Origin: an uncultured virus (IMG/VR IMGVR_UViG_3300032167_006623)
Lineage: Duplodnaviria; Heunggongvirae; Uroviricota; Caudoviricetes
Length of the DNA: 64,000 nucleotides
Virus record (IMG/VR): IMGVR_UViG_3300032167_006623
Strand: one strand, 5' to 3'
Part shown: positions 619 through 62,408 of the stretch, piece by piece
Numbering within the stretch: position 1 is the stretch's first letter
Layout of the letters: each line of letters starts with the position of its first letter
Translations under genes and position numbers: made by a program
Notes under the pieces: model-generated
Seen by the model: only the letters and a program-made list of their open reading frames with translations
Told to the model about the DNA's origin: nothing
The model's database searches: none

Positions 619-2373
619 GTGACTGACAATACAGTTGACAAAACAGATATGCTGTCGCGAACCTTGAATGACGTCATTCATGAGACAACAATGTCATATC
701 TGAGCTTGATTGATAAGGATAACCCCCCGTCTCCACACACTATTGAACAGGAATTGCTATCCGACATTAATGATATGATAGCTCTTGAAAACCTGAATAT
801 ACCCAAAATCACTATGAAAGATGCAAATGGTCAGCCTATATATGATAAAAAGGGCAATCCTAAGACCATGCCTCTTCGTGCTCCTTGGCGCAGCATTGAA
901 CGATTGCTTCCTCAGCAGCTTGCTGATATCGTAATGTTCTTTCATCACGTAGTTCGTATTGACGCGGCTGAAAGCAATGTTGAGAGTGAAGAAGACTTGC
1001 TCGCCATTTATTGTGAATCAGGTTATAACAAGGGTATTTATGACACCAATGAAAGTGTATTATATCGTATCGTCAAAGAATATGATTATATGCTTGAAGA
1101 AAGAAAATTCAAAGAAGTATGCTTTACACTTAAATCATTGGCGCCCCGTAAACAAAGAACACATAATCGCAATCTTATTGCTGTTAATAACGGTATTTTT
1201 GATTATAAATCAAAGAATTTGTATCCTTTCACGCCCGATATGGTTTTTTTGGCTAAATCTCGTGTTGATTATAACCCGAATGCATCGCTTGTTACCATTC
1301 ACAATGATGATGACGGTACTGACTGGGATATTGAGACATGGATGTCAGAGCTTTCCGATGACCCTGAGATTGTCGAACTTCTTTGGCAGATGCTCGGTGC
1401 AATCATAAGGCCATTCGTCAGATGGAATCAATCCATATGGCTTTATTCCACGACAGGCAACAATGGTAAAGGAACATTATGTGAACTTATGCGTAATCTC
1501 TGTGGCAACGGAACACACACCAGTATCAAACTGGCTGAATTCAATAAAGACTTTGCTCTTGAACCGTTAATACACAGTAATGCTATTATTGTAGACGAAA
1601 ACGATGTAGGCTGTTATCTTGACAGCTTAGCTTCTCTTAAAGCTATTGTCACTAATGACATCGTTCAGATTAACCGTAAATATAAAAACTCGGTATCCTT
1701 CCGTTTTTGGGGCTTTATGGTGCAATGTATCAATGATTTACCCCGTATTCGTGACAAATCAGATTCTTTTTATAGAAGACAAATCCTTGTACCTATGGAT
1801 AAATGCTTTACCGGTGCAGAAAGACGTTATATCAAGGATGATTATCTGTCACGTCCTGAGGTTCTTGAATATGTTATGAAGAAAATTCTTCATACTGATT
1901 TTTATGCTTTATCTGTTCCTGACAGATGCCGTAATCTTCTTAATATGTACAAAGGTCTTAACGACCCTATTCGTGAATTTCTTGAAGAGTTCAAAGAACA
2001 GTTTACGTGGGATTTGATTCCTACCGAATTCTTGTATGACCTTTATAAAGCATGGTATGCCCGCTGTAATCCGTGCGGCAAGCCTGAAGGTCGAAATACA
2101 TTTAAGAAACAGATTGATATTCTGCTTTTGGAACCGGGTTTTTGCGAATATTGGGAATCATCTTCCAAAATGGTAAGAGTTTGCAACAAAATGTCGCAGC
2201 CTGAACCGTTGATTGTTCAATACAATCTTACATCATGGAAGAACCCAAGCTATACGGGCAATGACATAGATAAGATGTCAATGCCTCGACTGCTTACAGA
2301 CCGTTTCAGAGGTCTTGTAAGACGTGATAACAGCTTATCATCACAAAACGTTATAGACGCAGATGATGACTAA
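619..2373 (+). CDS. D5/P4-family primase-associated SF3 helicase
   Basis: D5_N-like LIAVNNGIFD, Walker A GNNGKGT, Walker B IIVDEN, motif C QCINDLP, SFYRR. No primase motifs seen in the N-terminus. Confidence 0.85.
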   Translation: MTDNTVDKTDMLSRTLNDVIHETTMSYLSLIDKDNPPSPHTIEQELLSDINDMIALENLNIPKITMKDANGQPIYDKKGNPKTMPLRAPWRSIERLLPQQLADIVMFFHHVVRIDAAESNVESEEDLLAIYCESGYNKGIYDTNESVLYRIVKEYDYMLEERKFKEVCFTLKSLAPRKQRTHNRNLIAVNNGIFDYKSKNLYPFTPDMVFLAKSRVDYNPNASLVTIHNDDDGTDWDIETWMSELSDDPEIVELLWQMLGAIIRPFVRWNQSIWLYSTTGNNGKGTLCELMRNLCGNGTHTSIKLAEFNKDFALEPLIHSNAIIVDENDVGCYLDSLASLKAIVTNDIVQINRKYKNSVSFRFWGFMVQCINDLPRIRDKSDSFYRRQILVPMDKCFTGAERRYIKDDYLSRPEVLEYVMKKILHTDFYALSVPDRCRNLLNMYKGLNDPIREFLEEFKEQFTWDLIPTEFLYDLYKAWYARCNPCGKPEGRNTFKKQIDILLLEPGFCEYWESSSKMVRVCNKMSQPEPLIVQYNLTSWKNPSYTGNDIDKMSMPRLLTDRFRGLVRRDNSLSSQNVIDADDD

Positions 2374-29243: not shown

Positions 29244-30083
29244 ATGAAAAAAATCTTAGCGGCAATTCTTGCTGCAACTCTTGTGTTCTCTTTATCAGGC
29301 TGTCGTGCTGTATTCACAACTCTTGATAATGTAGAGTTTGAAGAATTTTACGATGACAATCTGGCTGAGCACGTCGATATTATCTCATCTCAGATAAATG
29401 ATTTCGACCCCGAAGAATTCAGAGATAAATATTACAATGACGATGATGACTATTCAAATGAAGCATCTTCTGAAACATCCGATACCAAATCTCAGTCAAC
29501 ATATGTAAATTCCGACAGCATTGACACACCTTGGATTATTCTCAATGATGGTATGCCTGACTTCACAGATGATGAACTGTCAATAACTTCTCTTGAGGAA
29601 TACTCCCCTCTTGACGAACTCGGTCGCTGCGGAACAGCAATGGCTGTTATTACACCCGATACAATGCCTGTTGAAGAACGAGGCAATATCGGAATGATTA
29701 AGCCTACAGGCTGGCATACAGTCAAATATGACTGTGTAGACGGCAAGTATCTTTATAATCGCTGTCATTTAATTGGTTATCAGCTTGCGGGTGAAAATGC
29801 AAATGAATTAAATCTTATCACAGGCACTCGCTATCTTAATATCGAAGGTATGCTCGATTTTGAAAATGATATCGCCGATTATGTTGAAGAAACAGGAAAC
29901 AGTGTTCTCTATCGCGTAACACCTGTATATGACGGTGATAATCTCCTTTGTGACGGTGTTCAGATGGAAGCATATTCTATTGAAGATAACGGCACGGGAA
30001 TTTGCTTCAATATTTTTGCTTATAATATTCAGCCCGGCGTAGAAATCAATTACGCTACAGGCGAAAGCCGCCTTGCTGAATAA
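29244..30083 (+). CDS. Lipoprotein DNA/RNA non-specific endonuclease (EndA-like)
   Basis: Lipobox LSGC; LDELGRC, PTGW, NRCHLIGYQL, NLITGTRYLN, YRVTP. Confidence 0.88.
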   Translation: MKKILAAILAATLVFSLSGCRAVFTTLDNVEFEEFYDDNLAEHVDIISSQINDFDPEEFRDKYYNDDDDYSNEASSETSDTKSQSTYVNSDSIDTPWIILNDGMPDFTDDELSITSLEEYSPLDELGRCGTAMAVITPDTMPVEERGNIGMIKPTGWHTVKYDCVDGKYLYNRCHLIGYQLAGENANELNLITGTRYLNIEGMLDFENDIADYVEETGNSVLYRVTPVYDGDNLLCDGVQMEAYSIEDNGTGICFNIFAYNIQPGVEINYATGESRLAE

Positions 30084-30095
30084 GAAAGGACTGTT

Positions 30096-30431
30096 ATGGA
30101 CAGATATTTCTACATTCTTGAATTGCTCGACGGAGAAAAACATATTCATGTCGAAGGCAATCTTTACCCGTCAGATAATGGCGAAAACACTTTTGAGATG
30201 GCTGAATGGTCAGGCTGCTATATTCCTCTCGCTGAAGCTCAGGAAATGATGAAAAATGATACATTTTTCTCAACAATTGATGAGCTTGTCAAGTATCAGG
30301 ATACTATTTCAACAGAAAAAGCTGATGAAATCCGTAAAACATATTTCAACAGCAAACCGGGGGTATCTCTTGATATTTTGAGTATAACAGATAATACGCC
30401 CTGCGGCGACTATTATTTTGACAGATATTAA
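30096..30431 (+). CDS. Hypothetical protein
   Basis: RBS GAAAGGA. Confidence 0.75.
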   Translation: MDRYFYILELLDGEKHIHVEGNLYPSDNGENTFEMAEWSGCYIPLAEAQEMMKNDTFFSTIDELVKYQDTISTEKADEIRKTYFNSKPGVSLDILSITDNTPCGDYYFDRY

Positions 30432-30712: not shown

Positions 30713-30973
30713 ATGCTTGATAATAAATTCATCACTCAGCAGGCTGTACAATTTCATCGCAGTGATGACTGTTACATCCATACTGAAAAGAAAGACGGTG
30801 GCAAATATGAAACCTGTATTGCCGGCGGAACAAGAGCTATTACACTTGGTATAATTAAAATCATTGAAAGACTTGCTGAATTTTCAGGCAGACGCTTCGA
30901 TGATATTCTTGATGAAATCAAACTTATCAAGGGTCTCACTTCTCCTATACCCATGGATGAAGACTCAGAATAA
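30713..30973 (+). CDS. Hypothetical protein
   Basis: RBS GAAAGGA. Confidence 0.7.
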   Translation: MLDNKFITQQAVQFHRSDDCYIHTEKKDGGKYETCIAGGTRAITLGIIKIIERLAEFSGRRFDDILDEIKLIKGLTSPIPMDEDSE

Positions 30974-31676: not shown

Positions 31677-32081
31677 ATGAAAATATTCAATAACAATAAA
31701 TATCCCCGCAGAGGTGAAGTTTATTATGTCAAAAAAGGCAACACGACATCCACGGGCTCAGAAACATGGTCGAACAGACATGCTGTGATTGTATCAGCCA
31801 ATCATACGAACAAAACAAGTAATGTTGTCCAGATTGTATATATCACAACACAGCCTAAATCAAAAGCATTGACTCACGTTGATATATCGACCAATCACAC
31901 GCATCGCATTGCATTATGCGAACAGATAGTTCCTATTGACAAAAGCCGTATCGTTGAATACAAAGGCAAGCTGTCTGAAGAACAGATGGTTCAGATTGAC
32001 AAAGGTATGGCTTGGAATCTGAATCTCTTCCGTTACATGAATTTCAAGCATGTTGACAGACGTTTTAATCGTATGGTATAA
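31677..32081 (+). CDS. PemK/MazF-family toxin
   Basis: RRGEVYYV, GSE...R.AVIVS, ITT, ALCEQI..IDKSR, M.QID. Confidence 0.85.
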   Translation: MKIFNNNKYPRRGEVYYVKKGNTTSTGSETWSNRHAVIVSANHTNKTSNVVQIVYITTQPKSKALTHVDISTNHTHRIALCEQIVPIDKSRIVEYKGKLSEEQMVQIDKGMAWNLNLFRYMNFKHVDRRFNRMV

Positions 32082-32082
32082 T
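32053..32082 (+). promoter_or_regulatory. Promoter within the 3' end of the mazF-like gene
   Basis: TTGACA (32053), 18 bp, TATAAT (32077) with extended TG. Confidence 0.7.
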
Positions 32083-32087
32083 ATGCT

Positions 32088-32165
32088 TGTGAGTAAAATT
32101 TAAAAAAATTCATGACTCACACTCTCAACGGTCTGCTGAGTCTTACTCGGCTGACCGTTTTTTAT
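32088..32165 (+). ncRNA. Candidate short leader/antitoxin RNA ending in a terminator
   Basis: TGTGAGT/ACTCACA stem with an A-rich loop, then an AACGGTC..GACCGTT stem and T run. Located between the promoter and the ToxN-like genes. Confidence 0.45.
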
Positions 32166-32252
32166 TTCTGACTTAAAAGTCAGACGGATTATTATCAAAT
32201 TGGTCTATAATTTGATAATACTGTATTTTAAACGATAGAAAGGAACTTTAAC

Positions 32253-32711
32253 ATGAAAATGATTACCAACGTGGAAAACAGCACCGTATCTTTTGGCTTA
32301 TATCGCATTGACAAAGAATATCTCAGTCGAATGTCAAATCCCGACACAATCAAGGAAACAGGTGTCCGTTGTTATCCTGACTATGACTTGTACTGCGGAC
32401 CTGTAATGCAGACTGAAGATGAAGAAACAGGTGAAATCCTCAACTATTTCATCCCTATCAATGAACCCGATATCGAAAACGAATCTACTTTGAAGGGTGA
32501 AAACTGGGTATCACAGCTTGAATCTTCCATTGATGGTCTTTGTGGCGGATACGATTTCTGCACTCTTTTTCCTTGCCTCGATAAATATCTCACACCTGCA
32601 AACGATGTTTCTGAGGAAGATAAGACCAAATATGAATTTGTTCTTGCACATAAGGATGACCTCAGATTTTTAATTGAAGACATTCTTCCTGCTATTGCAG
32701 ACGACAATTAA
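32253..32711 (+). CDS. Divergent ToxN/AbiQ-like protein
   Basis: FGLYRIDKEYL, YCGPV, NYFIPI, DF..LFP; aligns with the downstream paralog. Confidence 0.6.
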   Translation: MKMITNVENSTVSFGLYRIDKEYLSRMSNPDTIKETGVRCYPDYDLYCGPVMQTEDEETGEILNYFIPINEPDIENESTLKGENWVSQLESSIDGLCGGYDFCTLFPCLDKYLTPANDVSEEDKTKYEFVLAHKDDLRFLIEDILPAIADDN

Positions 32712-32746: not shown

Positions 32747-33400
32747 ATGGCAACAATTGTACCTTTCGGCTTATATGATGTTGACAGATATTACCTTGAT
32801 GAATTGCGTAAGGCTGACCCTCATGTTCCCAAATCTGATTACGAAGATGATGGTCAGCACCGCAAGTTTTACTGTGGTCCTGTTTATAATGATAAAGGTA
32901 TCAATTATTTTGTGCCCATTTCATCCAAGATAAAAAAACAGGATTATCTTGAACCATATGTGAGAATCATGAAAAATCCCGAAAACAAAAAAGAAATTGG
33001 ATGTCTCGATTTTCGTTATATGGTACCCGTCCCGTCAAAATATATTGCACCTCATGAAGATATGGATGCTGAAAAGCGCAATTCCAACGGTGAATTGTCA
33101 CATACAGCTATTTATGCAAGAATTTGCAATAATGCCAAAGCTCGTAAAAAAATTCATGAAACAGCCAAAGCTGCTTTTAATGATATAAGTGACAACAAAC
33201 CTATTGCAAAATCAAGCATAGCTTTCGGTAAAATGCAAAGAGTTGTAAGACAGGTTGACAGAGATATAACTCAAGGTAAAAGCTCATATAAACCTGACCC
33301 ATTCGTAACTGATTTACGAACTCGCTTTCAAAATACTATCGAAGGCTGGTCCACACCTGCTGTTTCAACACCACCTGATATCACTCCTGAAATAAAATAA
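32747..33400 (+). CDS. Type III TA ToxN/AbiQ-family endoribonuclease with C-terminal extension
   Basis: LYDVDRYYLDELRKADPHVP, RKFYCGPV, NYFVPISSK, GCLDFRYMVPVP. Confidence 0.8.
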   Translation: MATIVPFGLYDVDRYYLDELRKADPHVPKSDYEDDGQHRKFYCGPVYNDKGINYFVPISSKIKKQDYLEPYVRIMKNPENKKEIGCLDFRYMVPVPSKYIAPHEDMDAEKRNSNGELSHTAIYARICNNAKARKKIHETAKAAFNDISDNKPIAKSSIAFGKMQRVVRQVDRDITQGKSSYKPDPFVTDLRTRFQNTIEGWSTPAVSTPPDITPEIK

Positions 33401-34684: not shown

Positions 34685-34761
34685 CTACAAATCCATTGTG
34701 AATCATACAGCTTGTTTTAAGAACAAGCTGTATGACTCTATATTTCAGAAAGGACGGGCTT

Positions 34762-37700
34762 ATGCTTAAAATTTTACATACAGCAGACTGGCATATAGGT
34801 AACTTCCCTGCCCCTGCTTCAAAATCTCGTACAAACCTGCGATATCTTGATATATGCTCATATATTGAGTTTTTAATATCCAAAGCTGAAGAAATGAAGC
34901 CTGATATTATAATCATTGCCGGTGATATTTTCAATCAGGCAAAAACTTGGTCAGACCGAGGTCTTCAGGAAACAAATACAATTGTTGAATACATTTCACA
35001 GCTTGCTGATATTGCACCTGTTTATGCTCTCAGAGGCACAGCCAATCACGACGGCAAAATGCATTATGACTTACTGACAACAGCTCTCAAGAACAATAAC
35101 AATGTTACTATTGTTGATGAAGCATGCATTAAAAATGCAGACAATAAAGCTGTTATTGCCTTTGTCCCCATTTTCGACAGAAATAAACATAGAATGGAAG
35201 CTGATGTTCCTATGGACAAAGAGGCCGAAAACAATTATTTCTGCGATAAGGTCAGGGATGCAATCCTTGACCTGAAGATGGAAGCCGATAAATACTGCCC
35301 CAATCTTCCGACCATCCTCGTGACCCATTACACAGTGCTCGGTTCAATGATGCCTAACGGACAGACAAGCATTTTTGCAACAAATGAGATTGTCATTGAC
35401 CCGATTACACTTATTCAGAGTGACTACACACTCACCTGTCTTGGACATGTACATAAGCCTCAGCAGCTTGAAGCCTGCCCCAATACCTTTTACGCAGGTT
35501 CGCTTTGTGCCTTGAATTTCAATGATGAAAATGACCTTCATGGTTTTTATATGCATTACATTGATACAAATGGTGATGTTGCTTCGGAGTTCATTGAAAC
35601 TCCATCAAGACAGTTCCACACCATATGGTTCAATGACGCTCAGCTTAACGACATTATTGCAAAGGACTATGACCTTACAGATTATGTCGATGATTCCCTC
35701 GCAGGCTCTATCATCAGAGCCATATATAACTGTACGGATGTTACGGATAAGTCTCTGAACAAGGCACTTTTTGAAAAAGCCTTGTATAAGCACACCAATG
35801 CATTCTATGTACAGGAGATTATTTCTTCTGAAATAAATATCACTGTTGATAAAACAACTATGCGTAATACAGCAAGTATTGATGATAATCTGCGTCAATT
35901 TCTTACCAATGAACAGATTGACCACGGTACTATTACTGATAAGCAGATTTCTGATTGCATTGACATCGCACAGCCCATCATAGATAATCTGCTTGCCGAT
36001 GCGTCATCCAATTACAATATCGGTGTTTTCACACCTATTGAAATTGAAGTCAAGAACTATCGTAATTACAAATCCGCTGTTTTCAACTATAATGATGTTC
36101 GTTTCTGCGTTATCAACGGCGATAACGGTGCAGGTAAATCAAGCTTATTCATGGACGCCATGCTTGATGCATTATTTGAAGAAACCCGCGAAGGCGATAT
36201 TACAGGCTGGATAAACAACGACATTAACGCTCGCAGCGGCAGTATCAAGTTTACATTCTCCATCGGCGATAACGTCTATAAAATCACCCGTACCCGCCAG
36301 AAATCAGGTAAAGCCACACTTAATCTGGCACAATTTGTTACTGATGAAAACAATAATCAATCTTGGGTTGATATGAGTGAAGACAAGCTTAAAGATACAC
36401 AGACTGTAATAAACAATCTTATAGGAATGAATGCTGTGACACTCAAATCCTGCGGATTAATCATGCAGGACGCCTACGGTTTATTCCTGCAGGCTGACAA
36501 GAATACTCGAATGGATATTCTGGGTGATATTCTTAATCTCAGCATCTATGACGAACTGCATGACGCAGTCTCTGAGCTGAATCGTGCATTTCAGGCTGAA
36601 CTCGTCCGCATAAACGACGAAGAAGCCAACATTCTCAACAATATCAAAAATGGTGAAGAGATTCAGGCAAATCTCAATACCGCTTATGCTGATAACTCAG
36701 CGTACGAGCGTGAACTCAAGGATTGTAACAATAATCTTGTTACATTGACTTTAACGCGTGAAAATCTTATGAAAGACATGGATTCCTTTAATCGTCTTAA
36801 TGATGATATTGCGACTTTGACAACAAAATCGCAGGCACTTCATGTATCTCTTGAAGAACAGAACACTATTCTTATCAATGCGTATAACGTAGTGTCAAAT
36901 GAAGATGCATATATTGAAAAGACAAAGCGTCACGCGGAGCTTGTACTTCAGGAAAAAGAAATGTCCGAAAAAAGAAGCAGAATTCAGGCATTAATGTCTG
37001 AAAAAATGAGAATTGACAACGAAATCGGCTCACTTAATACAGTAAATGCTGACGCTGACAGCAAAATTGCAATCATTGATAAAAAGCTTCGAGATATAGA
37101 GTTTGAGCTTGCTGCATCTGAAGACACAGAAGCCAAAGCTAAACTTTATGAACAGACTAAGGCTGAAATTGCTGATATCGAAAAGCGACTTGAGGAAATC
37201 AGAGCACTTGAATCTGCTTATACGGAAAAAGATGTTCTTATATCTGAAATCAATCATGATATGGCAAGTCTCAGAGTTGAGTATGATACAAAATTCAATG
37301 AAATTGAACGCAAGGCCAAGATTCTCAGTGAATCAGGTTGTCCCATTTCTGAAAAGGCTACTTGTAAATTCCTCGCTGATGCTCAGCAGGCTCTTGCGAG
37401 CAAACAGGGACTTACAGATGAATACAACAGCAAATTCTGTTCTTATATACAGAAGCTGGATATTTTGAAAAAGGAACTCGAAGAAATTGCAGCGAAGCTT
37501 GCTGTTCTCCGTGAAAATCTTCCTGATATCAACCTGAAAAAGCAGGAACTTGCTGTATATGAAGCTTGTGCATTTAAAATGGCAAGCATTCCTGAACTCA
37601 GAAATACACATGAAGCCTATAATCAGCAACTTGTTGAATTTAATCAGATTAAAATCAACAATATTAATAAAATCAGCGAATTAACTGCTCAGATGAATGA

Positions 37701-38643
37701 CATTTCACAGCAGATAACAGCTCTTACAGCTGAAACCATTGATTATGATAAAATCAGAGCTGAAATCGCAGCCATCGGTGATATTGTTGCTCAGGGTAAT
37801 GATATTGCGGCGAATAAGGCTATAATGGCGACCGCTGACGCTCGAATCAAAGAGATTACGGCTGAAATTGATGCACTGAATAAAGAAATTGCTGATAAAT
37901 CTGCTCAGCGTAATGCTGCAAATGTCGATGTCCTTGCAATCAATCGTGTTGATGCCGACATTCTTGCTTGCCACACACGTACTGACCTGCTTAATAAAAA
38001 TCTGGCTGATAACAGCAAGATTATAGGCAGACTTGAGCTTGAAATGAAGCAGTATCAGAACGACATCAGACAGCTTGATAAGCTCAAACAGCTCAAAGAT
38101 AAAATGTCTTACTCTGCGTCCAATGCAGGCTGGCTTAAGAAAGCGTTTAACAGAAATGGTATTCCTCATAATATCGTTCGTTCTGTTATTCCTATTCTTG
38201 AAACAACAGCAAGCAATATTTTGGGACAGATGTCCGGCAACACTATGTCTATTGAGCTTCGAACTGAAAAGGTTCTCACAACAAAGAAAGAGGTTGCAAC
38301 TCTTGATATTATTGTATGCGATACGGTTACGGGCGACCTGCCTTATCTCTCCCGCAGTGGCGGCGAACGAGTAAAGGCTGCCCTTTCAATAGTTCTCGCT
38401 CTTGCTGAAATCAAATCAAGTGAAAGCGGCACTCAGCTTGGCTTCCTGTTCATTGATGAACCGCCATTCCTTGATTCCAATGGTATTGAGGCTTATTGTG
38501 ACGCTCTTGAGGCTATTCAGAGACGTTATTCTGACTTGAAAATCATTGCTATTACTCATGACCCTGAGATGAAGTCAAGATTTGCTCAGAACATTGATGT
38601 CGTTAAGACTCCTGATGGCAGTGAAATATATGCCAATCTTTGA
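34762..38643 (+). CDS. SbcD(Mre11)-SbcC(Rad50) fusion protein
   Basis: Phosphoesterase motifs HTADWH, AGDIF, ANHD, LGHVHK; ABC motifs GDNGAGKS, Q-loop, long coiled coil, SGGE, FLFIDE, ITHD, all in one frame. Confidence 0.9.
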   Translation: MLKILHTADWHIGNFPAPASKSRTNLRYLDICSYIEFLISKAEEMKPDIIIIAGDIFNQAKTWSDRGLQETNTIVEYISQLADIAPVYALRGTANHDGKMHYDLLTTALKNNNNVTIVDEACIKNADNKAVIAFVPIFDRNKHRMEADVPMDKEAENNYFCDKVRDAILDLKMEADKYCPNLPTILVTHYTVLGSMMPNGQTSIFATNEIVIDPITLIQSDYTLTCLGHVHKPQQLEACPNTFYAGSLCALNFNDENDLHGFYMHYIDTNGDVASEFIETPSRQFHTIWFNDAQLNDIIAKDYDLTDYVDDSLAGSIIRAIYNCTDVTDKSLNKALFEKALYKHTNAFYVQEIISSEINITVDKTTMRNTASIDDNLRQFLTNEQIDHGTITDKQISDCIDIAQPIIDNLLADASSNYNIGVFTPIEIEVKNYRNYKSAVFNYNDVRFCVINGDNGAGKSSLFMDAMLDALFEETREGDITGWINNDINARSGSIKFTFSIGDNVYKITRTRQKSGKATLNLAQFVTDENNNQSWVDMSEDKLKDTQTVINNLIGMNAVTLKSCGLIMQDAYGLFLQADKNTRMDILGDILNLSIYDELHDAVSELNRAFQAELVRINDEEANILNNIKNGEEIQANLNTAYADNSAYERELKDCNNNLVTLTLTRENLMKDMDSFNRLNDDIATLTTKSQALHVSLEEQNTILINAYNVVSNEDAYIEKTKRHAELVLQEKEMSEKRSRIQALMSEKMRIDNEIGSLNTVNADADSKIAIIDKKLRDIEFELAASEDTEAKAKLYEQTKAEIADIEKRLEEIRALESAYTEKDVLISEINHDMASLRVEYDTKFNEIERKAKILSESGCPISEKATCKFLADAQQALASKQGLTDEYNSKFCSYIQKLDILKKELEEIAAKLAVLRENLPDINLKKQELAVYEACAFKMASIPELRNTHEAYNQQLVEFNQIKINNINKISELTAQMNDISQQITALTAETIDYDKIRAEIAAIGDIVAQGNDIAANKAIMATADARIKEITAEIDALNKEIADKSAQRNAANVDVLAINRVDADILACHTRTDLLNKNLADNSKIIGRLELEMKQYQNDIRQLDKLKQLKDKMSYSASNAGWLKKAFNRNGIPHNIVRSVIPILETTASNILGQMSGNTMSIELRTEKVLTTKKEVATLDIIVCDTVTGDLPYLSRSGGERVKAALSIVLALAEIKSSESGTQLGFLFIDEPPFLDSNGIEAYCDALEAIQRRYSDLKIIAITHDPEMKSRFAQNIDVVKTPDGSEIYANL

Positions 38644-46929: not shown

Positions 46930-46976
46930 AACACAAGACAGACAACCTGTGAAACTTTATGAAAGGACAGATTCCA

Positions 46977-53226: not shown

Positions 53227-53991
53227 ATGGACGAAATCAGACTCCCAAGCACAGATTCTATGGAAGATGCAGGCCGTGATAAATCGACATACGATATCAG
53301 TGATGTAGCTGATGAAAATGCTGCCGATTATATCAACAATATGAAACTTGCTGCACAAAACAGTGATTTAGCGGCTAATCTTAAGCTATCTCAAAAATAT
53401 GCAAGAACTGCATATTTTAATGACCCGCAGGAAATAGCCAAAGCTGAAGCTGCAAGTGAACAAGCAAAAGCATATGCTGCTGAAAATCTTTCACAGATAA
53501 ATCTTGACACACTGTCAAACGGCGATTATGAAAAAATGCTTAATGCCACAATAAATAGTGCTGACCCTAAAGGCACTAATACTCTTGATGCTGCTTGTGA
53601 ACGGTCTGCTGTATTGAGACATGCCATTGGAGAATTGGATGATAAAAGCCTTCACGCTGTTCTTAACAGTCAGAATCCCAAATTTCAGGCTGAAATTATT
53701 GAAACAATAAAAGAACAGCATCCTGAAGCTCTTCCCTCAGAAGAACAGCTCAATGCGTATAAACAAGATATAAAAAAGGCACTTATAGAAGGTAAACCCC
53801 GTCCTGAGCTGACAGACATGAAATCTATAAATGCCAATATCAGTGCTAAAACAAGCGAAATATATAATAACCATGTTGAAGCTGCGATTAATGAACAAAC
53901 TGCTCAAAAAGCTGCGGCTACCCGTAGATTCAGCAACGGTCTTTCAGGGATATCAAGTATGTCTTCCCCTGATAATACATTCAATTATTAA
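53227..53991 (+). CDS. Hypothetical helical protein with RF tail
   Basis: RBS GAAAGGA; ends RRFSNGLSGISSMSSPDNTFNY. Confidence 0.75.
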   Translation: MDEIRLPSTDSMEDAGRDKSTYDISDVADENAADYINNMKLAAQNSDLAANLKLSQKYARTAYFNDPQEIAKAEAASEQAKAYAAENLSQINLDTLSNGDYEKMLNATINSADPKGTNTLDAACERSAVLRHAIGELDDKSLHAVLNSQNPKFQAEIIETIKEQHPEALPSEEQLNAYKQDIKKALIEGKPRPELTDMKSINANISAKTSEIYNNHVEAAINEQTAQKAAATRRFSNGLSGISSMSSPDNTFNY

Positions 53992-54508: not shown

Positions 54509-54546
54509 GAAACCAGCCTTGATGGCTGGTTTCTTTTTTTTTATTT
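54509..54546. terminator. Terminator at the convergence of the two gene trains
   Basis: GAAACCAGCC-TTGAT-GGCTGGTTTC plus T run. Confidence 0.75.
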
Positions 54547-54819
54547 TGCAAAAACATTGTCAGTGTCTTTGTTTGGGTTATTTTTATTGACATCTGAGCC
54601 TATAGTGTTTAAGTCCACAGATACAAATCTCTGTTTGAGATTCGGATTTACAGTGCGAATAGAATCACCTGTAAAATCGCCATTGCCTATAGAAGAATAC
54701 GGTGAATGTCTGAACTTCATCTTATTTTTTTCGAACTGTATCTTCTCTCTTTCGACATCAGACATAAGCTCTTCGGGTTTCAAAATATCATTCCGTATAT
54801 TGAATTTCACATCTCCCAT
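54541..54819 (-). CDS. Hypothetical protein with RF tail
   Basis: RBS GAAGGGA. Confidence 0.65.
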   Translation of the reverse strand: MGDVKFNIRNDILKPEELMSDVEREKIQFEKNKMKFRHSPYSSIGNGDFTGDSIRTVNPNLKQRFVSVDLNTIGSDVNKNNPNKDTDNVFAK

Positions 54820-54834
54820 AATATTATCCCTTCA

Positions 54835-55383
54835 TTAGTCAATATCACCGGTATCATCAATATTATCGAATAAATCCTGAAATTTATCCTCAACATCAGA
54901 TGTAGCTGTTCCATAAACTAATTTATCAAATTTGTGACTATGTGTCAATGCTTTTTTGATAAATATATCATCTTCCATAGTTGCTGTTTTTATTGCAACA
55001 GCCTGCAATTCCTTTGCTGCTTTTGTGATTTCATCCCGATTTTGCATCTCTTTTGCATATTTTCGAGCCTTTCCGTTTCTTGCAGCCTGCTCTCTCGCCT
55101 GCTGCTCTTTGATTTGTTTCTCGCGTTCTCGTTTTTTCTTCCGCTTCCGTGTTCTTTTCAAACACGGAAGAGAAGATTTTTTACGAAAATCCGAAGCAAA
55201 TTTTATCTGTTTTTCAAACGACTTTTTTTCAGATATTTCATCGACACCTTCGACATTTTTATTGTCAATATCTTCAATGCTTTGCGTTAAAGCCTCATAT
55301 TCAGTCAAAACAGATTCTATTTCATTGTCGGTAATAGGCTCGTCGAGATTCATAACAGCTTTTTTATCAAAATTAAGAGCCAT
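54835..55383 (-). CDS. Hypothetical charged coiled-coil protein
   Basis: Start coupled to the upstream stop; basic stretch KRTRKRKKKR; ends KFQDLFDNIDDTGDID. Confidence 0.7.
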   Translation of the reverse strand: MALNFDKKAVMNLDEPITDNEIESVLTEYEALTQSIEDIDNKNVEGVDEISEKKSFEKQIKFASDFRKKSSLPCLKRTRKRKKKREREKQIKEQQAREQAARNGKARKYAKEMQNRDEITKAAKELQAVAIKTATMEDDIFIKKALTHSHKFDKLVYGTATSDVEDKFQDLFDNIDDTGDID

Positions 55384-55712
55384 TATTTTGACAAACCTGC
55401 AGATTCAGCTTCGGGTGCAGATGGTACATCCATCTTTATTGCGGAATCAAATCTGCTTGGACCCTTATTGACAGTTTTGGAATTATCAATGGTGACATTA
55501 CCGCTTACACTTGCGCCCTCAAGAGTGTGGTCACTTTTGTGGATATCACCCGCACCCACACTAAGATTAAGATTGAGGTCATCTGCTTTAACACCTACAC
55601 TGCCGGGTGCTGCATTTACACTGTCCCCACCGATTTCTTTGTCTTCCTTTCTTGGAAGAACTTCAACTTCCTCTGCCTGAACTACTTCAAGATTCTTGTT
55701 CTGATTTTCCAT
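55383..55712 (-). CDS. Hypothetical protein with RF tail
   Basis: RBS GAAAGGA. Confidence 0.7.
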   Translation of the reverse strand: MENQNKNLEVVQAEEVEVLPRKEDKEIGGDSVNAAPGSVGVKADDLNLNLSVGAGDIHKSDHTLEGASVSGNVTIDNSKTVNKGPSRFDSAIKMDVPSAPEAESAGLSK

Positions 55713-55735
55713 AACAAATTACCTATCCTTTCTTA

Positions 55736-56188
55736 TTATTCGCCCATTTCCATATCCATTGACGCTGACGCAGGTGCCGACTGCGGTGTGCTTGGAACGG
55801 AATTAAAACGATTCTTGAGATTAGTAAAGCCTTCTTTGATTTCAGCTTTTGTCTGGTCAATACCTGCATTGAAATCACTTACGGCTTTATTGATTTTGCC
55901 GGGTACAGAATTGTCATACATAGTTTTTGCAAACTTTTCAGCACCTTCTTTGAACTCAGCAATACGTTTATCCCTGATTTCTTCATCAGCTCTTACACGT
56001 TCCGCTGATTTGGGAACAAAAATAGGAGCTTTATTGTCCCCTGCTACATTAACTGTAACAGTTTCATCAAACTTGACATTTCCACCAACGTTTGCGTTTC
56101 TGAGCATATTATTGCTCGCATCGATATCGCCTGTTCCGAGCTGAACTTTACCATTGACATTTTCAGCCTGAGCTTTAATATCCGCCAT
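55736..56188 (-). CDS. Hypothetical protein with RF tail, partly paralogous to 55383..55712
   Basis: RBS GAAAGGA. Confidence 0.7.
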   Translation of the reverse strand: MADIKAQAENVNGKVQLGTGDIDASNNMLRNANVGGNVKFDETVTVNVAGDNKAPIFVPKSAERVRADEEIRDKRIAEFKEGAEKFAKTMYDNSVPGKINKAVSDFNAGIDQTKAEIKEGFTNLKNRFNSVPSTPQSAPASASMDMEMGE

Positions 56189-56603
56189 AACCAAAACCAT
56201 CCTTTCCCTTTTTCTCGTAACCGTCTTGTTCGAGCATTTCCTCTACGCCCAAGCCACGAGCCTTTGCTTCACGTTCAAGTGCTTTCTTGCGTATATCAGT
56301 TGCTGCATCTGTAATTTCCTGCTGCTCTTTGCGAATACGACTGTCTTCCATCACACCGTCAATCATACCGTTCACACCGCTTGTACGCACAAACGGAAGA
56401 TTAGCTTTGAGCACATCCTGAGCAAACATTTTATTGTTAGCTTTCATTTTTTCAGCAGCAAGCTCTGCGGCATAATCTGTCTTTTCGAGCTGTTTTCTGT
56501 CATCATCATTGAGATATCTCTCATCGATGCTTTTGGACATTTCTTCATGCTCATCGATTACCCTTTGCAAATCATCCCGCCGATTTCGCTTTTCTTCAGC
56601 CAC
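56175..56603 (-). CDS. Hypothetical charged protein
   Basis: RBS GAAAGGAG; probable GTG start. Confidence 0.7.
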   Translation of the reverse strand: MAEEKRNRRDDLQRVIDEHEEMSKSIDERYLNDDDRKQLEKTDYAAELAAEKMKANNKMFAQDVLKANLPFVRTSGVNGMIDGVMEDSRIRKEQQEITDAATDIRKKALEREAKARGLGVEEMLEQDGYEKKGKDGFGYGGY

Positions 56604-56631: not shown

Positions 56632-59133
56632 TTAATCACCATAATCATCCTCATTGTATTGTTCCAAATCCTGCACTGTAATTGATGTCACAGGTTTATC
56701 AAATCTATTCATATCAATAGCTGATGACTCTGTTTGTGCATCAGATTTTACAACATCAGTGCTTGCAACTTCGATAGACTCACCTTTGTTATCGCTTACA
56801 TTAAGCTGAGAGTTCGTTTCTTTTTCATCAACTGTCGCTTCGACTTCATCATTTGCTTCTGAAATAGGCTTTTCTGTTACATCTTCGACATTACTAACCT
56901 TTTCTTCTTCCGCAATAGGTTTTTCAATAGACGCTACTATCTGCTCAACACGTTCATCAGATGTATTGACTATTGTAGGAGCTATGTCCTTATGTAATCC
57001 ATCCATTAAGGCTTTCATATTTGTAGCCTTTGATGTTGGTAAAGCCTTTTGCTCAGGTTTTTTATCTTCCAAGACAGGCTGAGGTTCAACATCTATGACT
57101 TCAGATTGCTTACTTTTTTCGATAACAGTCGCTTCTGCTTCAATGATTTCCGATTTTTGATTTTTAACAAAAACATCCTTAAATTTATCACACAGCTCTT
57201 TAGCCATCATCGCATTGTTTGCAATCTGTATCAAACCCTCTTGAAAATTAGCCAAAAAAGGCTTTTCATTTTTATCCGATTCCTTAATTTCCGTCTCATA
57301 AACAGCTGTTTCCTTGGTTTCTTCCTTGGTTTCTTCCTTGGTTTCTTCCTTGGTTTCTTCAGTAGATACTGTATTTTCAGAAACATTTTGTTTAATCTGA
57401 ACATCTTTACTATCAAGAACCTGCTGACCTGCATCTGTGATAACATAATCATTATCACACTTTGCTTTTTCAACATATTCACTTAATAAAGACTTCGCTT
57501 TATCAACCGTTATTTCATAATAACCGCTATCGCAATTATAACCATCAGACCAATTATAAAAATAACGGTCTTCAAGCTGATAAATTCTTGATGAATCAGA
57601 CCAACACTGGTCGCTATCATCGTGTTCATAATCATATTTGGCTAATAATGTACCCTTATTGAACAAATCAAGAGCCTTGTATTCCTCAAAAGTCATCTCG
57701 CGTTTATCTTGAACTGTTTGCTCATTTTCAGCTTCATTTTCAGCTTCATTTTCAGCTTCATTTTCAGCTTCATTTTCAGCTTCATTTTCAGCTTCATTTT
57801 CAGCTTCATTTTCAGCTTCATTTTCTGAAAGATTTTTTCCCTTAATTATGGCTGTCAATTCTTCAATTTTAGCCTCAAGCTCTCTGATACGACTATCTGT
57901 ATTCGCATCGCTGATTTGCTGCATGACATCATCATCAAAAGAATACCCATCCGTACCGTCTTCTTTCATCATTCGACTCCAAGTTTCAGGTATTTCCATA
58001 TTAACGAGCTTGCTTGCAGGACAATTTTGTTCAGCCCAGAATTTACAACCCATACGATTGGCTCTTTCGAATTCATAATCGAATTTGTCCATTTCATCAG
58101 GACAATCGGCTTCAGCTAATCTCCTTGTCGAATTCATAAGATACTGAAAACTATTGCTGTCAACAACCTTTTTCAAATCGGACTCTGATTTGCAAACAGA
58201 CATATATGCCCATTCTTTTTTAGCAAAATTTGAAAGAATATCTTCAACGCTTTCAACTTCACGAACCTGAAAATCCCAAGAATCAAGATTGTGACATTTA
58301 CCCTCTTTATCAGGGGACGAAACAAAATCATAAGATGTTCTGTACAAAGGCTTACCATGTACTCGAACCTCTTTGCCACCGGTTGTCATTACAGGCTCTC
58401 TTTTAGCAGATAGTCTTATATCACCTGTTGCCATACCCTGATATACGTCAGTGAGTGTTTCGTCATACATTATCTGCTCTTTCAGTTTTTTACTGAATGC
58501 TTTTGATAATGCCTGTTTATTTACACCATCAATCTCAGCCATATTGGTGAGATTAGCAACAGCTTTTTCATGCTCTTCTGTCAGACTTACAATATCTGCG
58601 CCGGGACGACGGCAATCGTTATAAAACTTTTTATCGTATGCGATACGCATCATTGCCGCTGATTCAGCAGTTAACGGCATACGACCCTCATTTGCTGTTT
58701 TAGTGATTTTATCAGATAAAACCTTAAGTTTCGGATGTTTTTCAGCCTGAGCCTCAAAAAATGGCTGAAATTTGCTTGCAATTTTTGCACTGAAACTCGG
58801 TCTGAGTTTGGCAGCAGATTTGTTACCTGCAATGGCTGTCATTTCATCACCCATGATTTCAGCCATATCACCCTCAGGTACATAATCTATGTACTTATCA
58901 ATTATACCGAGTTTCTTCCTGATATATTTATCATTTACTGCATAAGCTGATTCAGCATTAATGTCAAGACTTGCATATTGTGCAAAAGTCTTTTCATATT
59001 TCTTAAGCTCTTTTTCAAAAGCCTTAGCATTTTTATTCATCGTATCAACAGCTTTTCCACTGTAGTACGCACTTTCTAAACGCCCTTCTGTGTTATACAG
59101 CATCGGTATTATGCGTTCTCTTTTTTTAGCCAT
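56632..59133 (-). CDS. Large hypothetical protein with tandem repeats and RF tail
   Basis: About 830 aa; ENEA and EETK repeats; no signal peptide. Confidence 0.8.
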   Translation of the reverse strand: MAKKRERIIPMLYNTEGRLESAYYSGKAVDTMNKNAKAFEKELKKYEKTFAQYASLDINAESAYAVNDKYIRKKLGIIDKYIDYVPEGDMAEIMGDEMTAIAGNKSAAKLRPSFSAKIASKFQPFFEAQAEKHPKLKVLSDKITKTANEGRMPLTAESAAMMRIAYDKKFYNDCRRPGADIVSLTEEHEKAVANLTNMAEIDGVNKQALSKAFSKKLKEQIMYDETLTDVYQGMATGDIRLSAKREPVMTTGGKEVRVHGKPLYRTSYDFVSSPDKEGKCHNLDSWDFQVREVESVEDILSNFAKKEWAYMSVCKSESDLKKVVDSNSFQYLMNSTRRLAEADCPDEMDKFDYEFERANRMGCKFWAEQNCPASKLVNMEIPETWSRMMKEDGTDGYSFDDDVMQQISDANTDSRIRELEAKIEELTAIIKGKNLSENEAENEAENEAENEAENEAENEAENEAENEAENEQTVQDKREMTFEEYKALDLFNKGTLLAKYDYEHDDSDQCWSDSSRIYQLEDRYFYNWSDGYNCDSGYYEITVDKAKSLLSEYVEKAKCDNDYVITDAGQQVLDSKDVQIKQNVSENTVSTEETKEETKEETKEETKETAVYETEIKESDKNEKPFLANFQEGLIQIANNAMMAKELCDKFKDVFVKNQKSEIIEAEATVIEKSKQSEVIDVEPQPVLEDKKPEQKALPTSKATNMKALMDGLHKDIAPTIVNTSDERVEQIVASIEKPIAEEEKVSNVEDVTEKPISEANDEVEATVDEKETNSQLNVSDNKGESIEVASTDVVKSDAQTESSAIDMNRFDKPVTSITVQDLEQYNEDDYGD
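57308..57360 (-). repeat. 12-bp tandem repeat encoding EETK
   Basis: About 4 copies of GAAGAAACCAAG (minus strand). Confidence 0.9.
57722..57825 (-). repeat. Perfect 12-bp tandem repeat encoding ENEA
   Basis: 8 full copies of TCATTTTCAGCT plus a partial copy. Confidence 0.95.
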
Positions 59134-59156
59134 GATGACCACCCTCTCTTTGAATA

Positions 59157-60042: not shown

Positions 60043-60110
60043 ATTACCATATCCTTTCATGTTTTATTATCATCCATACACAGCCTACGGCTGTGTATGG
60101 ATTCTGTTTG

Positions 60111-62408
60111 TTAGTCATCCGTAACATCAAGACCATTATCAGGACCCTGAGTTTCACTACCCTGATAAATATTCGCAGCCTCATTGAACCTATTTAACAA
60201 ATTCTTTTTGTTATTATTGATAGCCATGGCATCTTTGATATCTTTACCTGTGATATCATCACCGGCCTGATAGTCACCAACATCAATCTGAAGATTGTTT
60301 GCCTCTGTAGGTTCAACATATCCCATTGCGTCTTTCATAGTCTTGCTCTGTGGAATATTCACATAGGGGTCAAACGTAGGCATATTCACATAAGGGTCGA
60401 AAGTATTTTCTACCGTCATATCCATACCCGTAGCAGAAATCATATTCGGCTTTTCCTTTTCAGGAGTTTTTTCAGGCTTTGGCTCTTCGACAGGTTTACG
60501 CTCAAGATTATTATCCTCAGTATTTTCCTCAATCTGGTCATCGAGAGACTTACGCTCAGAGTTTCTGCCTGCAGCTTCAAAGCCCTCTTGACCTGCACTG
60601 AAGCTTTCCTGCGGACCGTCAGGCTCATGCAGCTTATCCCACTCTTCCTGAGTGTATTTCTGAGTAATCATTTCACCCTTTTCATTCTTCTCAGAAATAG
60701 TATACTGTCCGTCTTTGAACGTCTCCTCGCGATACATCTCACCCTTATAATACGCACGGTTATAGCTCTCCGAAACCTCAGCACCGTCGTAGCTTACGCC
60801 TCTTTCACGCATCTTGGTCTTACCATCATCTTCATACTCAATCCAACGGTCACTTGTGAGCTTCTTTGTTTCAGGGTCAAAAGTCTGAATATTCATATCA
60901 GCAAGCTTACCGTCTATGCCATATATCTGAGTCTTTCTGTAACCCTCTTTTTCAGTCATAAGGCATGTGAGATTGCCGTTTCTGTCGTAATTCTGAGTAC
61001 GGATGCTGCCGTCGCCCATATCATAGACTTTTTCTCCTTCAGCTTCTTTAATCAGCTTTGGATACTCAGGCTTATCCTCAGTTTTGCCGCTTGCAAGCTG
61101 TTCCTTTGTTTTCAATGCCTCAGCAGCCTGCTTCTCTGCATTGATTTTAGCCATGTCAGTATTTACAACAGCCTGTACGGCAGCTGCGTCATAGCCTGCT
61201 TCTTTCAAAGCATTGGCTCTCTCAATGCCATTGCCGTAATCACCTCTGATAACGGACTGAGCAGCCTCTTTATTAACCTGTGCGTTCCACTCTTCCTGAG
61301 TGCCTTTGAAATCAGCGGACATTTTATACGGGTCGGGCTTAGCGTTTTCATCAACAATGCCTAAGTCAGATTTATACTGAGCATAATTGCTCATACGCTC
61401 CTGAGCTCTCTTAGCGTCATCCGCACTGTTTACTCTTAAATTACCGCCGCCCTCTTCCAAAAGCTTTTCGGTTTCTTCAATATAAGCCTTTTTCTCAGCT
61501 TCGGTCATTTCCTTGACCTCACCTGTTTCCTCAGGCTCAGGCTTAGCGTTATATTCCTTGGTTTCAACGGTCTTGGTCTCTGTTACCGTTTCTTTAGCTT
61601 CGGGCTCGGTTTTCGCAGGCTCAGTCTTTTCGGGAGCTGCCGTTTCAGCTTCTGCAGGCTTATCTCCTCTCAGGCTGTTGATAAAATCATTCTTTTCCTG
61701 AAACTTACGACCATCCTCTGCGTTCTGAATATTATTGGCTTCCTTGGCTTCATATTTATCAAAATATGCAACCTGCTTTTCAGCCCAAGCCTCAGCCTGT
61801 TTGTTTATTACATCCTCAGAAGAACCGATAGCCATTGAGTAAGCAAGCTCTTTTTCGGCTATCATCACATCAAGCTGTGCTGACATCTGTTCGTATTCAG
61901 CGCCAAGCTTTGCAGCACTTGCTTCCTTCATATTTTTCAAAGCTTCGATTTCATCTCTCTGAGTTTCAAGAGCCGTTCTTGCTTCAACAGAAGCCTCATC
62001 ATTGCCTGTTATTGCAGCAATCTGCTCATTAAAACCGATACGCTTTTCATTGGCTCTCGTATGGTCAGTATATGTATTCAAAGCCGTAGAGCCGTCAAGA
62101 CCGTATTTCTCAAGGTCCTTGTCATCTCCGCCGAACTCAAGGGCATGAGCATAACCCTTGTCATACTCAGCGGCGTCATACGTTTCATATGACGCAGTTT
62201 CAAGTGCGTCCGCCTGCTCAGCCAAAGTAGCTCCCGCATCACTGAACGCATTGTATTTGATTCTCTCAAGCTTTTGTGTCGGGTCAATATTGCCATTGCT
62301 GTCAGTACAAGCAGCTTCGATTTCAGCAAGCTCCTCAGGAGTCATCTTGCTGTTATACTCATTCATTATCTTGTCCTGATAAGCCTGTGCCATAGGATTA
62401 AGTGCCAT
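60111..62408 (-). CDS. Large acidic protein with a Cpl-7 (CW_7)-like cell-wall-binding repeat and RF tail
   Basis: AAQSVIRGDYGNGIERANALKEAGYDAAAVQAVVN matches the CW_7 pattern; YDRNG/YGIDG/YEDDG beta repeats; no signal peptide. Confidence 0.8.
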   Translation of the reverse strand: MALNPMAQAYQDKIMNEYNSKMTPEELAEIEAACTDSNGNIDPTQKLERIKYNAFSDAGATLAEQADALETASYETYDAAEYDKGYAHALEFGGDDKDLEKYGLDGSTALNTYTDHTRANEKRIGFNEQIAAITGNDEASVEARTALETQRDEIEALKNMKEASAAKLGAEYEQMSAQLDVMIAEKELAYSMAIGSSEDVINKQAEAWAEKQVAYFDKYEAKEANNIQNAEDGRKFQEKNDFINSLRGDKPAEAETAAPEKTEPAKTEPEAKETVTETKTVETKEYNAKPEPEETGEVKEMTEAEKKAYIEETEKLLEEGGGNLRVNSADDAKRAQERMSNYAQYKSDLGIVDENAKPDPYKMSADFKGTQEEWNAQVNKEAAQSVIRGDYGNGIERANALKEAGYDAAAVQAVVNTDMAKINAEKQAAEALKTKEQLASGKTEDKPEYPKLIKEAEGEKVYDMGDGSIRTQNYDRNGNLTCLMTEKEGYRKTQIYGIDGKLADMNIQTFDPETKKLTSDRWIEYEDDGKTKMRERGVSYDGAEVSESYNRAYYKGEMYREETFKDGQYTISEKNEKGEMITQKYTQEEWDKLHEPDGPQESFSAGQEGFEAAGRNSERKSLDDQIEENTEDNNLERKPVEEPKPEKTPEKEKPNMISATGMDMTVENTFDPYVNMPTFDPYVNIPQSKTMKDAMGYVEPTEANNLQIDVGDYQAGDDITGKDIKDAMAINNNKKNLLNRFNEAANIYQGSETQGPDNGLDVTDD

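Follow-up and report, generated by a model that had tools for sequence, protein, structure and literature searches.

The 217-residue ToxN/AbiQ-family endoribonuclease encoded on a 64,000-nucleotide stretch of DNA (IMG/VR record IMGVR_UViG_3300032167_006623; the whole stretch is referred to here as the window) carries near its C-terminus a short motif that recurs on otherwise unrelated proteins, including a P4-type primase in the window and the MobL relaxase of a complete syntenic relative, the IMG/VR contig G001. This C-terminal tag is a real, recurrent and modular motif. The element that carries it is, as judged from its gene content and contig overlaps, a circular megaplasmid of about 190-200 kb, conjugative in type or at least mobilizable, from gut Oscillospiraceae-like Clostridia. 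Our preferred reading, held tentatively and as somewhat short of an even prospect, is that the tag serves docking to, or translocation by, the conjugation machinery, and that ToxN would be a co-transferred effector resembling VbhT.

The toxin gene is preceded by an AAAGGAG ribosome-binding site 8 nt 5′ of its ATG. Its product matches the Pfam family ToxN_toxin (PF13958; E 1.3e-16, 61.7 bits against a cut-off of 25, residues 9-165), the PADLOC AbiQ model (3.6e-18, residues 9-168) and the solved ToxN chains of PDB entries 4ATO (2e-8) and 2XD0 (0.0047). An AlphaFold2 model built on 12 relatives (mean predicted local distance difference test score, pLDDT, 83.6) was matched by Foldseek to 4ATO, 2XD0, 7D8O and AbiQ 4GLK at E values of 4e-9 to 9e-8, with target-normalised TM scores of 0.79-0.81. 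By Pfam, PADLOC and modelled fold, the open reading frame (ORF) is a real member of the ToxN/AbiQ RNase family, and it is predicted to encode an intact endoribonuclease of this type. A reading made from the letters alone (the sequence-only reading) had proposed such an RNase with a tail added beyond its core. The matches bear out the first point. The second holds as well, in that the Foldseek alignments cover only 165-177 columns and the model shows a core (residues 1-175) and a linker (176-184) followed by an extra helix (185-200) and a disordered end (201-217).

The active site of ToxN_Pa is given as Tyr29, Lys33, Thr52, Ser53 and Lys55 in passages of PMC5086642. In the phmmer alignment to 2XD0, Lys33 corresponds to K40 and Thr52/Ser53 to S59/S60. 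Tyr29 lies opposite G36, with the invariant Y32 four residues off, and Lys55 lies opposite I62, with K61 and K63 on either side.

Past the linker, the protein reads TDLRTRF followed by 23 residues to its C-terminus, as the sequence-only reading had noted; D189-F194 are encoded at nt 33311-33328. The AlphaFold2 model forms the helix FVTDLRTRFQNTIEGW, in which L190, F194 and I198 share one face, and the tail closes with 17 polar residues, many of them Pro, Ser or Thr. The tails at 53-64 kb to which this end had been likened, NLKNRF, NLKQRF, NLKERF, NLVERF and NLLNRF, are all present. Within the cluster of 14 ORFs at 53.2-63.9 kb, RF stands 19-28 residues before the stop in nine, five of which read N-L-x-x-R-F, and KF, RY or NF variants occupy the equivalent place in three more (Table 1). 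In a typical cluster tail, RF is followed by a polar-polar-hydrophobic series and then by 15-25 polar residues. Many tails (P0255-P0287 and the window cluster ORFs) also appear bipartite, with [RK][FYW], a spacer of about 15 residues and an acidic patch whose aromatic residue lies 1-4 residues from the C-terminus, for example DDYSF, EPDYP and DDYDFG. The 765-residue CW_7 protein of the cluster, whose G001 orthologue ends in TSRF+22, has no N-terminal Sec signal visible by eye, which fits non-Sec export.

The position of the motif departs from chance. Among 69 greedy gene calls in the window, RF occurs seven times at 20-24 residues from the C-terminus, against 0.87 expected per five-residue bin, and across the 265 ORFs of the window and G001 together, L..RF occurs seven times in the zone 15-35 residues from the C-terminus, against 1.58 expected. 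The seven proteins are the P4-type primase, ToxN, three cluster proteins, a 316-residue G001 protein and the G001 relaxase. Evidence for the tag's reality is strongest in the homologues of the 836-residue cluster protein, which consists of a conserved N-terminal domain of about 400 residues, a variable acidic repeat region and the tail. Although these homologues range from 511 to 1052 residues in length, 26 of the 33 carry [RK][FYW] 18-32 residues from the end, and 21 of the 29 such dipeptides in their last 60 residues fall at 19-23, where that of ToxN (23) also lies. The distribution is flat in G002 (169 genes) and G005 (155 genes), two elements that also bear a relaxase but are more distantly related; the C-terminal RF peak is therefore no general property of such proteins. 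These tests use simple motif counts in place of a position matrix built from 13 cluster tails, which was noisy: its top matches were internal sites, and it placed the primase and the relaxase outside the top 30 of 68,722 positions. For ToxN, the window evidence taken alone is only suggestive, with a chance of about 0.6% per protein and two of about 55 non-cluster genes having the motif. The ToxN tag is significant because the motif recurs in ToxN homologues.

These homologues are few. An exhaustive HMMER scan of 1.84 billion representatives with ToxN returned only 133 matches at E≤1e-3. Members of the close clade are mostly 200-250 residues long (198-321 among 24 aligned members) and are extended relative to canonical ToxN/AbiQ, whose solved chains give 162-168 aligned residues. 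The motif [LM]..RF is found 20-24 residues from the end in six proteins: P0001 (the window protein), P0002, P0012 (LKQRF), P0017 and P0025 (both LAQRF) and P0021 (LRKRF). This amounts to 6 of the 24 close-clade members, or 6 of the 106 full-length hits, where about 0.14 tagged proteins would be expected among the 24. That expectation was taken from the background rate of the 265 ORFs, as the rate outside the zone in the ToxN set itself is inflated by the core motif LDFRF and gives a value, 1.38, that is too high. The closest homologue, P0002 (44% identical), retains the motif while its far end has diverged, and the sequences around the motif differ among the tagged proteins. In a core-only tree P0012, P0017 and P0025 form one supported clade and the other tagged proteins are left without supported placement, so that the six probably represent about three lineages. 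On whether such extensions are common in ordinary ToxN proteins, and whether RF is conserved in close homologues, both points raised by the sequence-only reading, the answer is divided: extensions of 40-60 residues, although common in this sub-clade, are not so in canonical ToxN/AbiQ; P0002 retains RF, but only six of the 24 clade members have it. Contig scans with a ToxN profile (12-sequence alignment) mostly gave distant or G001-like copies; only L026 (1.2 kb) has a KF variant. Related loci occur in metagenome-assembled genomes (MAGs) of Oscillospiraceae and Ruminococcus from gut and rumen. PLSDB holds no close relative of ToxN or of the relaxase, and phage records gave a single match, at 30%.

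The connection to transfer comes from the relaxase, the only protein whose passage through the transfer channel is obligatory. In G001 it ends in TTSLSKRF plus 29 residues. More than 1,300 relaxase homologues were found; L..[RK][FY] lies in the zone in 35 of the 118 full-length ones, including the entire closest clade (about 59% identity and above), whose consensus is T-x-L-S-K-R-F-D-[LM]-S-[IV]-P-V followed by an acidic run. More distant relaxases have L-D-x-D-Y at the same place. The relaxase P0139 reads TDLSKRFDMSI where the window ToxN reads TDLRTRFQNTI, so that T-D-L-x-x-R-F-x-x-x-I is common to both; the motif lies 23 residues from the C-terminus in ToxN and 29 in the relaxases. P0139 and the window ToxN may belong to the same contig, an assignment resting solely on both contigs being 188,868 bp long. 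ToxN thus carries a putative signal in common with the relaxase, the presumed substrate of the same system. A complex prediction for the 457-residue coupling-protein ORF of G001 and the relaxase tail (residues 640-704; 27-row alignment) scored 0.00 and, having no controls, counts neither way.

G001 (198,537 bp) was reached through the ToxN alignment and is syntenic with most of the window, their large conserved proteins being 65-78% identical. The relaxase and the VirD4-type coupling protein are seen in this complete relative rather than in the window itself. G001 encodes the MobL relaxase (3e-50) and a VirD4-like coupling protein of the CD1115 family (1e-21 and 4.5e-13; TraG-D_C, 2.7e-12). 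The latter is split into ORFs of 1209 and 457 residues (135291-138920 and 139311-140684) that match profile positions 21-151 and 296-431. Also present are a topoisomerase III with DUF3945, an actin-like partition protein, DUF6075 and a 2102-residue protein ending in a sortase-type sorting signal. The tagged cluster of G001 lies a few kilobases downstream of the coupling-protein genes, with only the gene for a 1985-residue protein between, and just before the adhesin. No match to the families Phage_capsid, Terminase_6N or FtsK_SpoIIIE was found in G001, and no structural PHROG match among 38+40 proteins; the "terminase" PHROG matches in G001 are confined to a ClpB-like protein that bears an intein. 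Phage records had no megablast match to the 54-64 kb region. The "inverted terminal repeat" on which the IMG/VR completeness call for G001 was based is 48 nt long, and we take it to be sequencing-adapter sequence. The window is contiguous across both G001 ends, and the molecule is therefore circular and plasmid-like rather than a linear virus. A jumbo phage had been the first guess, from the D5/P4 primase, a DNA polymerase PHROG, SNF2, UvrD, the fused SbcCD, FtsH and ClpB. That reading, with the tails as capsid-targeting or protease sites, was dropped in view of the relaxase and coupling protein and the lack of capsid and terminase matches in G001.

Other features of the element were observed in passing. 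The intein-bearing ClpB-like AAA+ gene of G001 (128966-133075), beside the coupling protein, has Hint and LAGLIDADG domains. The 1985-residue protein (141645-147602) shows a weak Rpb2 domain-6 match (3.8e-7) and the tail AKDY+27, and may be an element-encoded RNA polymerase. Two window proteins (46959-48848 and 51431-53104) each combine 4Fe-4S ferredoxin and Fe-only-hydrogenase large-subunit domains, with an additional methyl-accepting chemotaxis signalling domain in one; such cargo is unusual on a plasmid. Within the tagged cluster, the 836-residue protein contains internal (ENEA)n and (KEET)n peptide repeats. Its conserved N-terminal domain (AlphaFold2 pLDDT 78.8) had no Foldseek match in the PDB at E≤1e-3 and no usable match in the ESM Atlas, and VIA-align gave a best wide Z of 7.4 over one helical sub-domain only, which is no clear fold match; scans of viral contigs with the whole protein returned G001 as sole match. 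The 92-residue protein at 62426-62704 has three copies of an MRPEDYEMM-type unit.

The surroundings of the ToxN gene depart from the known arrangement. Type III (ToxIN) systems are defined, in passages of PMC5086642, by tandem RNA-antitoxin repeats of 34-36 nt followed by a terminator, upstream of the toxin. Tandem Repeats Finder at a minimum score of 30 detected at 30-35 kb only a 12-nt, 1.9-copy repeat far upstream and no ToxI array. A separate repeat search likewise found no array, and the locus had no Rfam match at E≤1. With neither tandem repeats nor an Rfam match, the locus fails the type III definition, and the RNA antitoxin that the sequence-only reading had presupposed finds no counterpart there. 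Directly upstream of ToxN lies a degenerate ToxN paralogue of 152 residues, which in the alignment lacks the clade-invariant Lys (K40) and Ser (S59). Such paralogues (132-154 residues) adjoin the long ToxN in three related elements, in variable order and in one or two copies: at 32253-32711 in the window, at 10632-11096 in L001, and at 9485-9883 and 9968-10375 in L013. One is downstream of ToxN in G001, and the two in L013 are upstream. The degenerate paralogue is a candidate protein inhibitor, or antitoxin, or a partner, in place of RNA.

Where the MazF gene ends there is a consensus sigma-70-type promoter (12/12, with an extended -10 TG), and a 165-nt structured leader (minimum free energy -49.7 kcal/mol, z -7.8, 0 of 200 shuffles as good) comes after it. 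The leader folds into four hairpins, one resembling a terminator and carrying a U6 run, and has no tandem repeats. As an RNA antitoxin it was considered and set aside, being not conserved in L013 or G001 and having no Rfam match. The MazF gene is syntenic in G001 and in L013, an Oscillospiraceae MAG locus with the same MazF-ToxN-SbcCD arrangement as the window. The SbcCD component is a 1303-residue protein (34732-38643 in the window) that fuses an SbcD-like phosphoesterase to an SbcC/SMC-like ATPase and is kept beside ToxN in both. Further upstream, the window encodes a non-specific DNA/RNA endonuclease with a lipoprotein signal (29244-30431; PF13930, 3.8e-22), followed by a 111-residue ORF that is a possible immunity protein.

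Table 1. Features of the window discussed in the text. Motif+n gives the number of residues between the motif and the C-terminus.
Feature	Coordinates	Strand	Basis or remark
P4/D5-type primase-helicase, LLTDRF+21; G001 orthologue TTDRY	619..2373	+	TIGR01613, 176 bits vs cut-off 108.7
Small ORF, 86 residues, GRRF+24, acidic end	30713..30973	+	no family match
PemK/MazF-like toxin gene, syntenic in G001 and L013	31677..32081	+	PF02452, 1.5e-19
Promoter and 165-nt structured leader	32053..32252	+	promoter match, folding
Degenerate ToxN paralogue, 152 residues, directly upstream of ToxN	32253..32711	+	PF13958, E 6.7e-4, 20.3 bits (cut-off 25)
ToxN/AbiQ-family endoribonuclease gene (predicted), 217 residues	32747..33400	+	Pfam, PADLOC and PDB matches, AlphaFold2 model, Foldseek
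C-terminal tag of ToxN, residues 185-217	33299..33397	+	predicted amphipathic helix FVTDLRTRFQNTIEGW, then polar end
Cluster ORF, RRF+19; G001 orthologue LKARF+21	53227..53991	+	tail reading
Four small cluster ORFs (next four rows)	54541..56200	-	tail reading
Cluster ORF, NLKQRF+27	54541-54819	-	tail reading
Cluster ORF, KF variant	54835-55383	-	tail reading
Cluster ORF, PSRF+21	55383-55712	-	tail reading
Cluster ORF, NLKNRF+22	55736-56200	-	tail reading
836-residue cluster protein, MNRF+22	56632..59142	-	homologue comparison
Gly/Ala-rich small protein, NF variant	59157-59603	-	tail reading
Gly/Ala-rich small protein, NLKERF+28	59623-60060	-	tail reading
765-residue protein, CW_7 peptidoglycan-binding repeat, NLLNRF+24	60111..62408	-	PF08230, 5.5e-12
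Cluster ORF, SNRF+22	62426-62704	-	tail reading
Cluster ORF, RY variant	62722-63126	-	tail reading
Cluster ORF, NLVERF+23	63229-63852	-	tail reading

In summary, the tag is a predicted amphipathic helix with L-x-x-R-F-x-x-x-I along one face and a flexible end of about 20 polar or acidic residues, and it stands at the same C-terminal distance on the MobL relaxase, the P4-type primase and about a dozen otherwise unrelated proteins. We infer, on the preferred reading, that it would dock these proteins onto one receptor of the transfer machinery, which may be the coupling protein itself or an unfoldase or adaptor that delivers substrates to it. With the motif gained in this lineage, ToxN would be exported into the recipient together with the relaxase-DNA complex. 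There it may cut RNA until the incoming plasmid expresses an inhibitor, perhaps the degenerate paralogue, so that recipient defences would be blunted or recipients that fail to keep the plasmid would be penalised. A bolder version, possible if doubtful, takes L-x-x-[RK]-[FY] about 19-25 residues from the C-terminus, often with an acidic-aromatic end, as a Gram-positive protein-transfer signal that marks an "injected kit", with a dead ToxN paralogue replacing the RNA antitoxin. Along with the relaxase and the primase, the kit would hold the peptidoglycan-binding protein, membrane-active small proteins and some ten disordered ones; certain lineages would add ToxN as an inter-bacterial effector.

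Several observations weigh against a transfer role for the ToxN tag. The ToxN extensions in G001 (222 residues) and L013 (233 residues) contain no [RK][FY], so the tag appears dispensable for the role of ToxN in those elements. The best core-only tree needs four changes to account for the six tagged ToxNs; its supported branches are compatible with a single origin, and repeated recruitment of the tag is therefore not proven. The 13-tail matrix, noisy as it is, ranks the ToxN site too outside its top 30 positions. Compared with most tails, that of ToxN is less acidic, and it is missing the acidic-aromatic patch found at the terminus of many cluster tails. The window ToxN gene lies in a toxin/defence-like island, away from transfer genes. 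The models of canonical VirB4, PF12846 and PF03135, have no matches in G001, so the element is perhaps only mobilizable, or its channel is very divergent. A 309-residue G001 ORF matches the N-terminal part of the NCBIfam VirB4 model weakly (29 bits against a cut-off of 590) and is followed by a 677-residue ORF in which a regular expression found no Walker A motif; together the two (105092-108051) may represent a very divergent or split VirB4. An RNase sent into a cell that is establishing the plasmid would be costly unless the inhibitor were made early. Finally, the link between tag and coupling protein is drawn from sequence rather than from an experiment or a structure.

Alternatively, the tag may work inside the donor, as a degron or recognition tag for the plasmid's AAA+ machines or as a hub motif for a common regulator, with ToxN an ordinary intracellular abortive-infection or addiction toxin whose amount or activity the tag would control. 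Candidate machines in the window are an FtsH-like AAA protease (8759-10663) and a double AAA+ protein resembling ClpB (24105-25961), and the intein-bearing ClpB-like gene of G001 lies between relaxase and coupling protein. A helix with a disordered end is also common in degrons, and ToxN sits in a toxin island with MazF and a secreted nuclease. However, it is hard to see the logic of a degron common to a relaxase, a primase, one protein that binds the cell wall and a dozen or so disordered proteins, the CW_7 protein must reach the wall, and in toxin-antitoxin logic, as set out in passages of PMC5086642, it is the antitoxin that is labile and not the toxin. We consider this reading unlikely. 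With export by another route, whether a host system or an undescribed one, the tagged proteins would act outside the donor or at its surface, and ToxN would be an antibacterial toxin, secreted or delivered by contact, with no tie to DNA transfer. This would sit well with the lack of a clear VirB4 in G001 and with the extracellular or membrane-active look of the CW_7 protein and the Gly/Ala-rich small proteins. It is nevertheless improbable, as G001 shows no FtsK/EssC-type ATPase, its tagged cluster lies a few kilobases downstream of the coupling-protein genes, and secretion of the relaxase and the primase, which act on DNA, would make sense only alongside that DNA.

The motif in ToxN could also be fortuitous, a functionless resemblance in a normal member of a sub-clade with a long, fast-evolving extension. 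Extensions are indeed the rule among the 24 proteins of this sub-clade, the motif is missing from 18 of them, same-locus copies included, and one such match among the non-cluster genes of the window is not improbable. Against this stand the excess of tagged ToxNs over expectation, which is very unlikely even when they are counted as three lineages, the extended T-D-L-x-x-R-F-x-x-x-I similarity to relaxase tails, and the retention of the motif in P0002 despite its divergent tail end; we give a chance match little probability. A virus-like element whose tags are packaging or maturation signals for particle-loaded proteins is very improbable. IMG/VR does class the contigs of G001 and 23 relatives as viral, a DNA polymerase PHROG and a P4/D5 primase give the replication module a phage-like character, and the RNA-polymerase-like protein adjoins the cluster. 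The searches described above, however, found no capsid or terminase family in G001 and no structural PHROG, the terminase-like PHROG matches are confined to the ClpB-like protein, and the apparent terminal repeat is presumably adapter sequence. A relaxase, a coupling protein, a partition actin and a sortase-type adhesin also speak for a plasmid.

When known systems are considered, ToxN is a family member as a protein, lies outside the type III definition as a system and, as putative cargo, would work like VbhT without being a BID protein. It shares with the type III toxins (2XD0, 4ATO, 7D8O and 4GLK) the Pfam family and the fold, and the active-site Lys33 and Thr52/Ser53 of ToxN_Pa have counterparts in the alignment. 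In contrast to them, it has no ToxI-like array, one or two degenerate paralogues adjoin it instead, and about 45 extra C-terminal residues bear the shared tag. BID is a folded C-terminal domain of roughly 100 residues. ToxN is not of this type: the approximately 45 residues after its core form one helix and a disordered end, and no Pfam domain was matched past residue 165. According to passages of Harms et al. 2017 (PMC5675462), VbhT combines a FicT toxin with a BID signal and is secreted by a conjugative type IV secretion system (T4SS), and other toxin-antitoxin toxins carry BID. The same passages propose co-transfer for VbhT and for PezT with BID, which, like ToxN here, are toxins of toxin-antitoxin systems with a C-terminal element also found on the plasmid's relaxase (PMC5675462). 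The present case differs in having an RNase fold rather than FIC or zeta, a linear motif of about 30 residues rather than a BID domain, a Gram-positive host and a gene away from the relaxase, and transfer is predicted only.

The C-terminal signals of VirB/D4 and Dot/Icm substrates include Arg-rich tails and the Glu-rich "E-block". The tag is comparable in its C-terminal position, its disorder, its few key residues and, in many tails, an acidic stretch near the end; taken as a whole, its likeness to known T4SS C-terminal signals goes no further than position and disorder. To our knowledge, none of those signals has L-x-x-[RK]-[FYW] as its core motif at a constant distance of 19-25 residues from the C-terminus, and the system here is Gram-positive and very divergent. 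Proteins that accompany DNA offer another parallel, as the Sog and TraC primases travel during conjugation. ParA, ParB, SSB and PsiB of an F plasmid are also transferred (PMC8406263). Relaxase and primase, classic DNA-accompanying classes, bear the tag here. Whereas the Sog, TraC and F-plasmid cases are Gram-negative and have no common short motif defined, a motif is visible here and transfer is predicted only. The literature consulted, including passages of a 2025 T4SS review, contained no description of this motif or of a Gram-positive protein-transfer signal, which is no proof of its absence in print.

If the preferred reading is true, a motif at a fixed position would make the choice of protein cargo by Gram-positive conjugation systems directly testable, and cargo would become predictable from sequence across a large family of uncultured gut megaplasmids. 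ToxN would then be a second, independent case, after FicT and PezT with BID, of a toxin-antitoxin toxin turned into a co-transferred effector, built on a different fold and apparently with a protein paralogue in place of the RNA antitoxin. Should the tag instead be a donor-side degron or hub, it would still tie transfer, replication and toxin proteins together through a common regulatory tag that is new.

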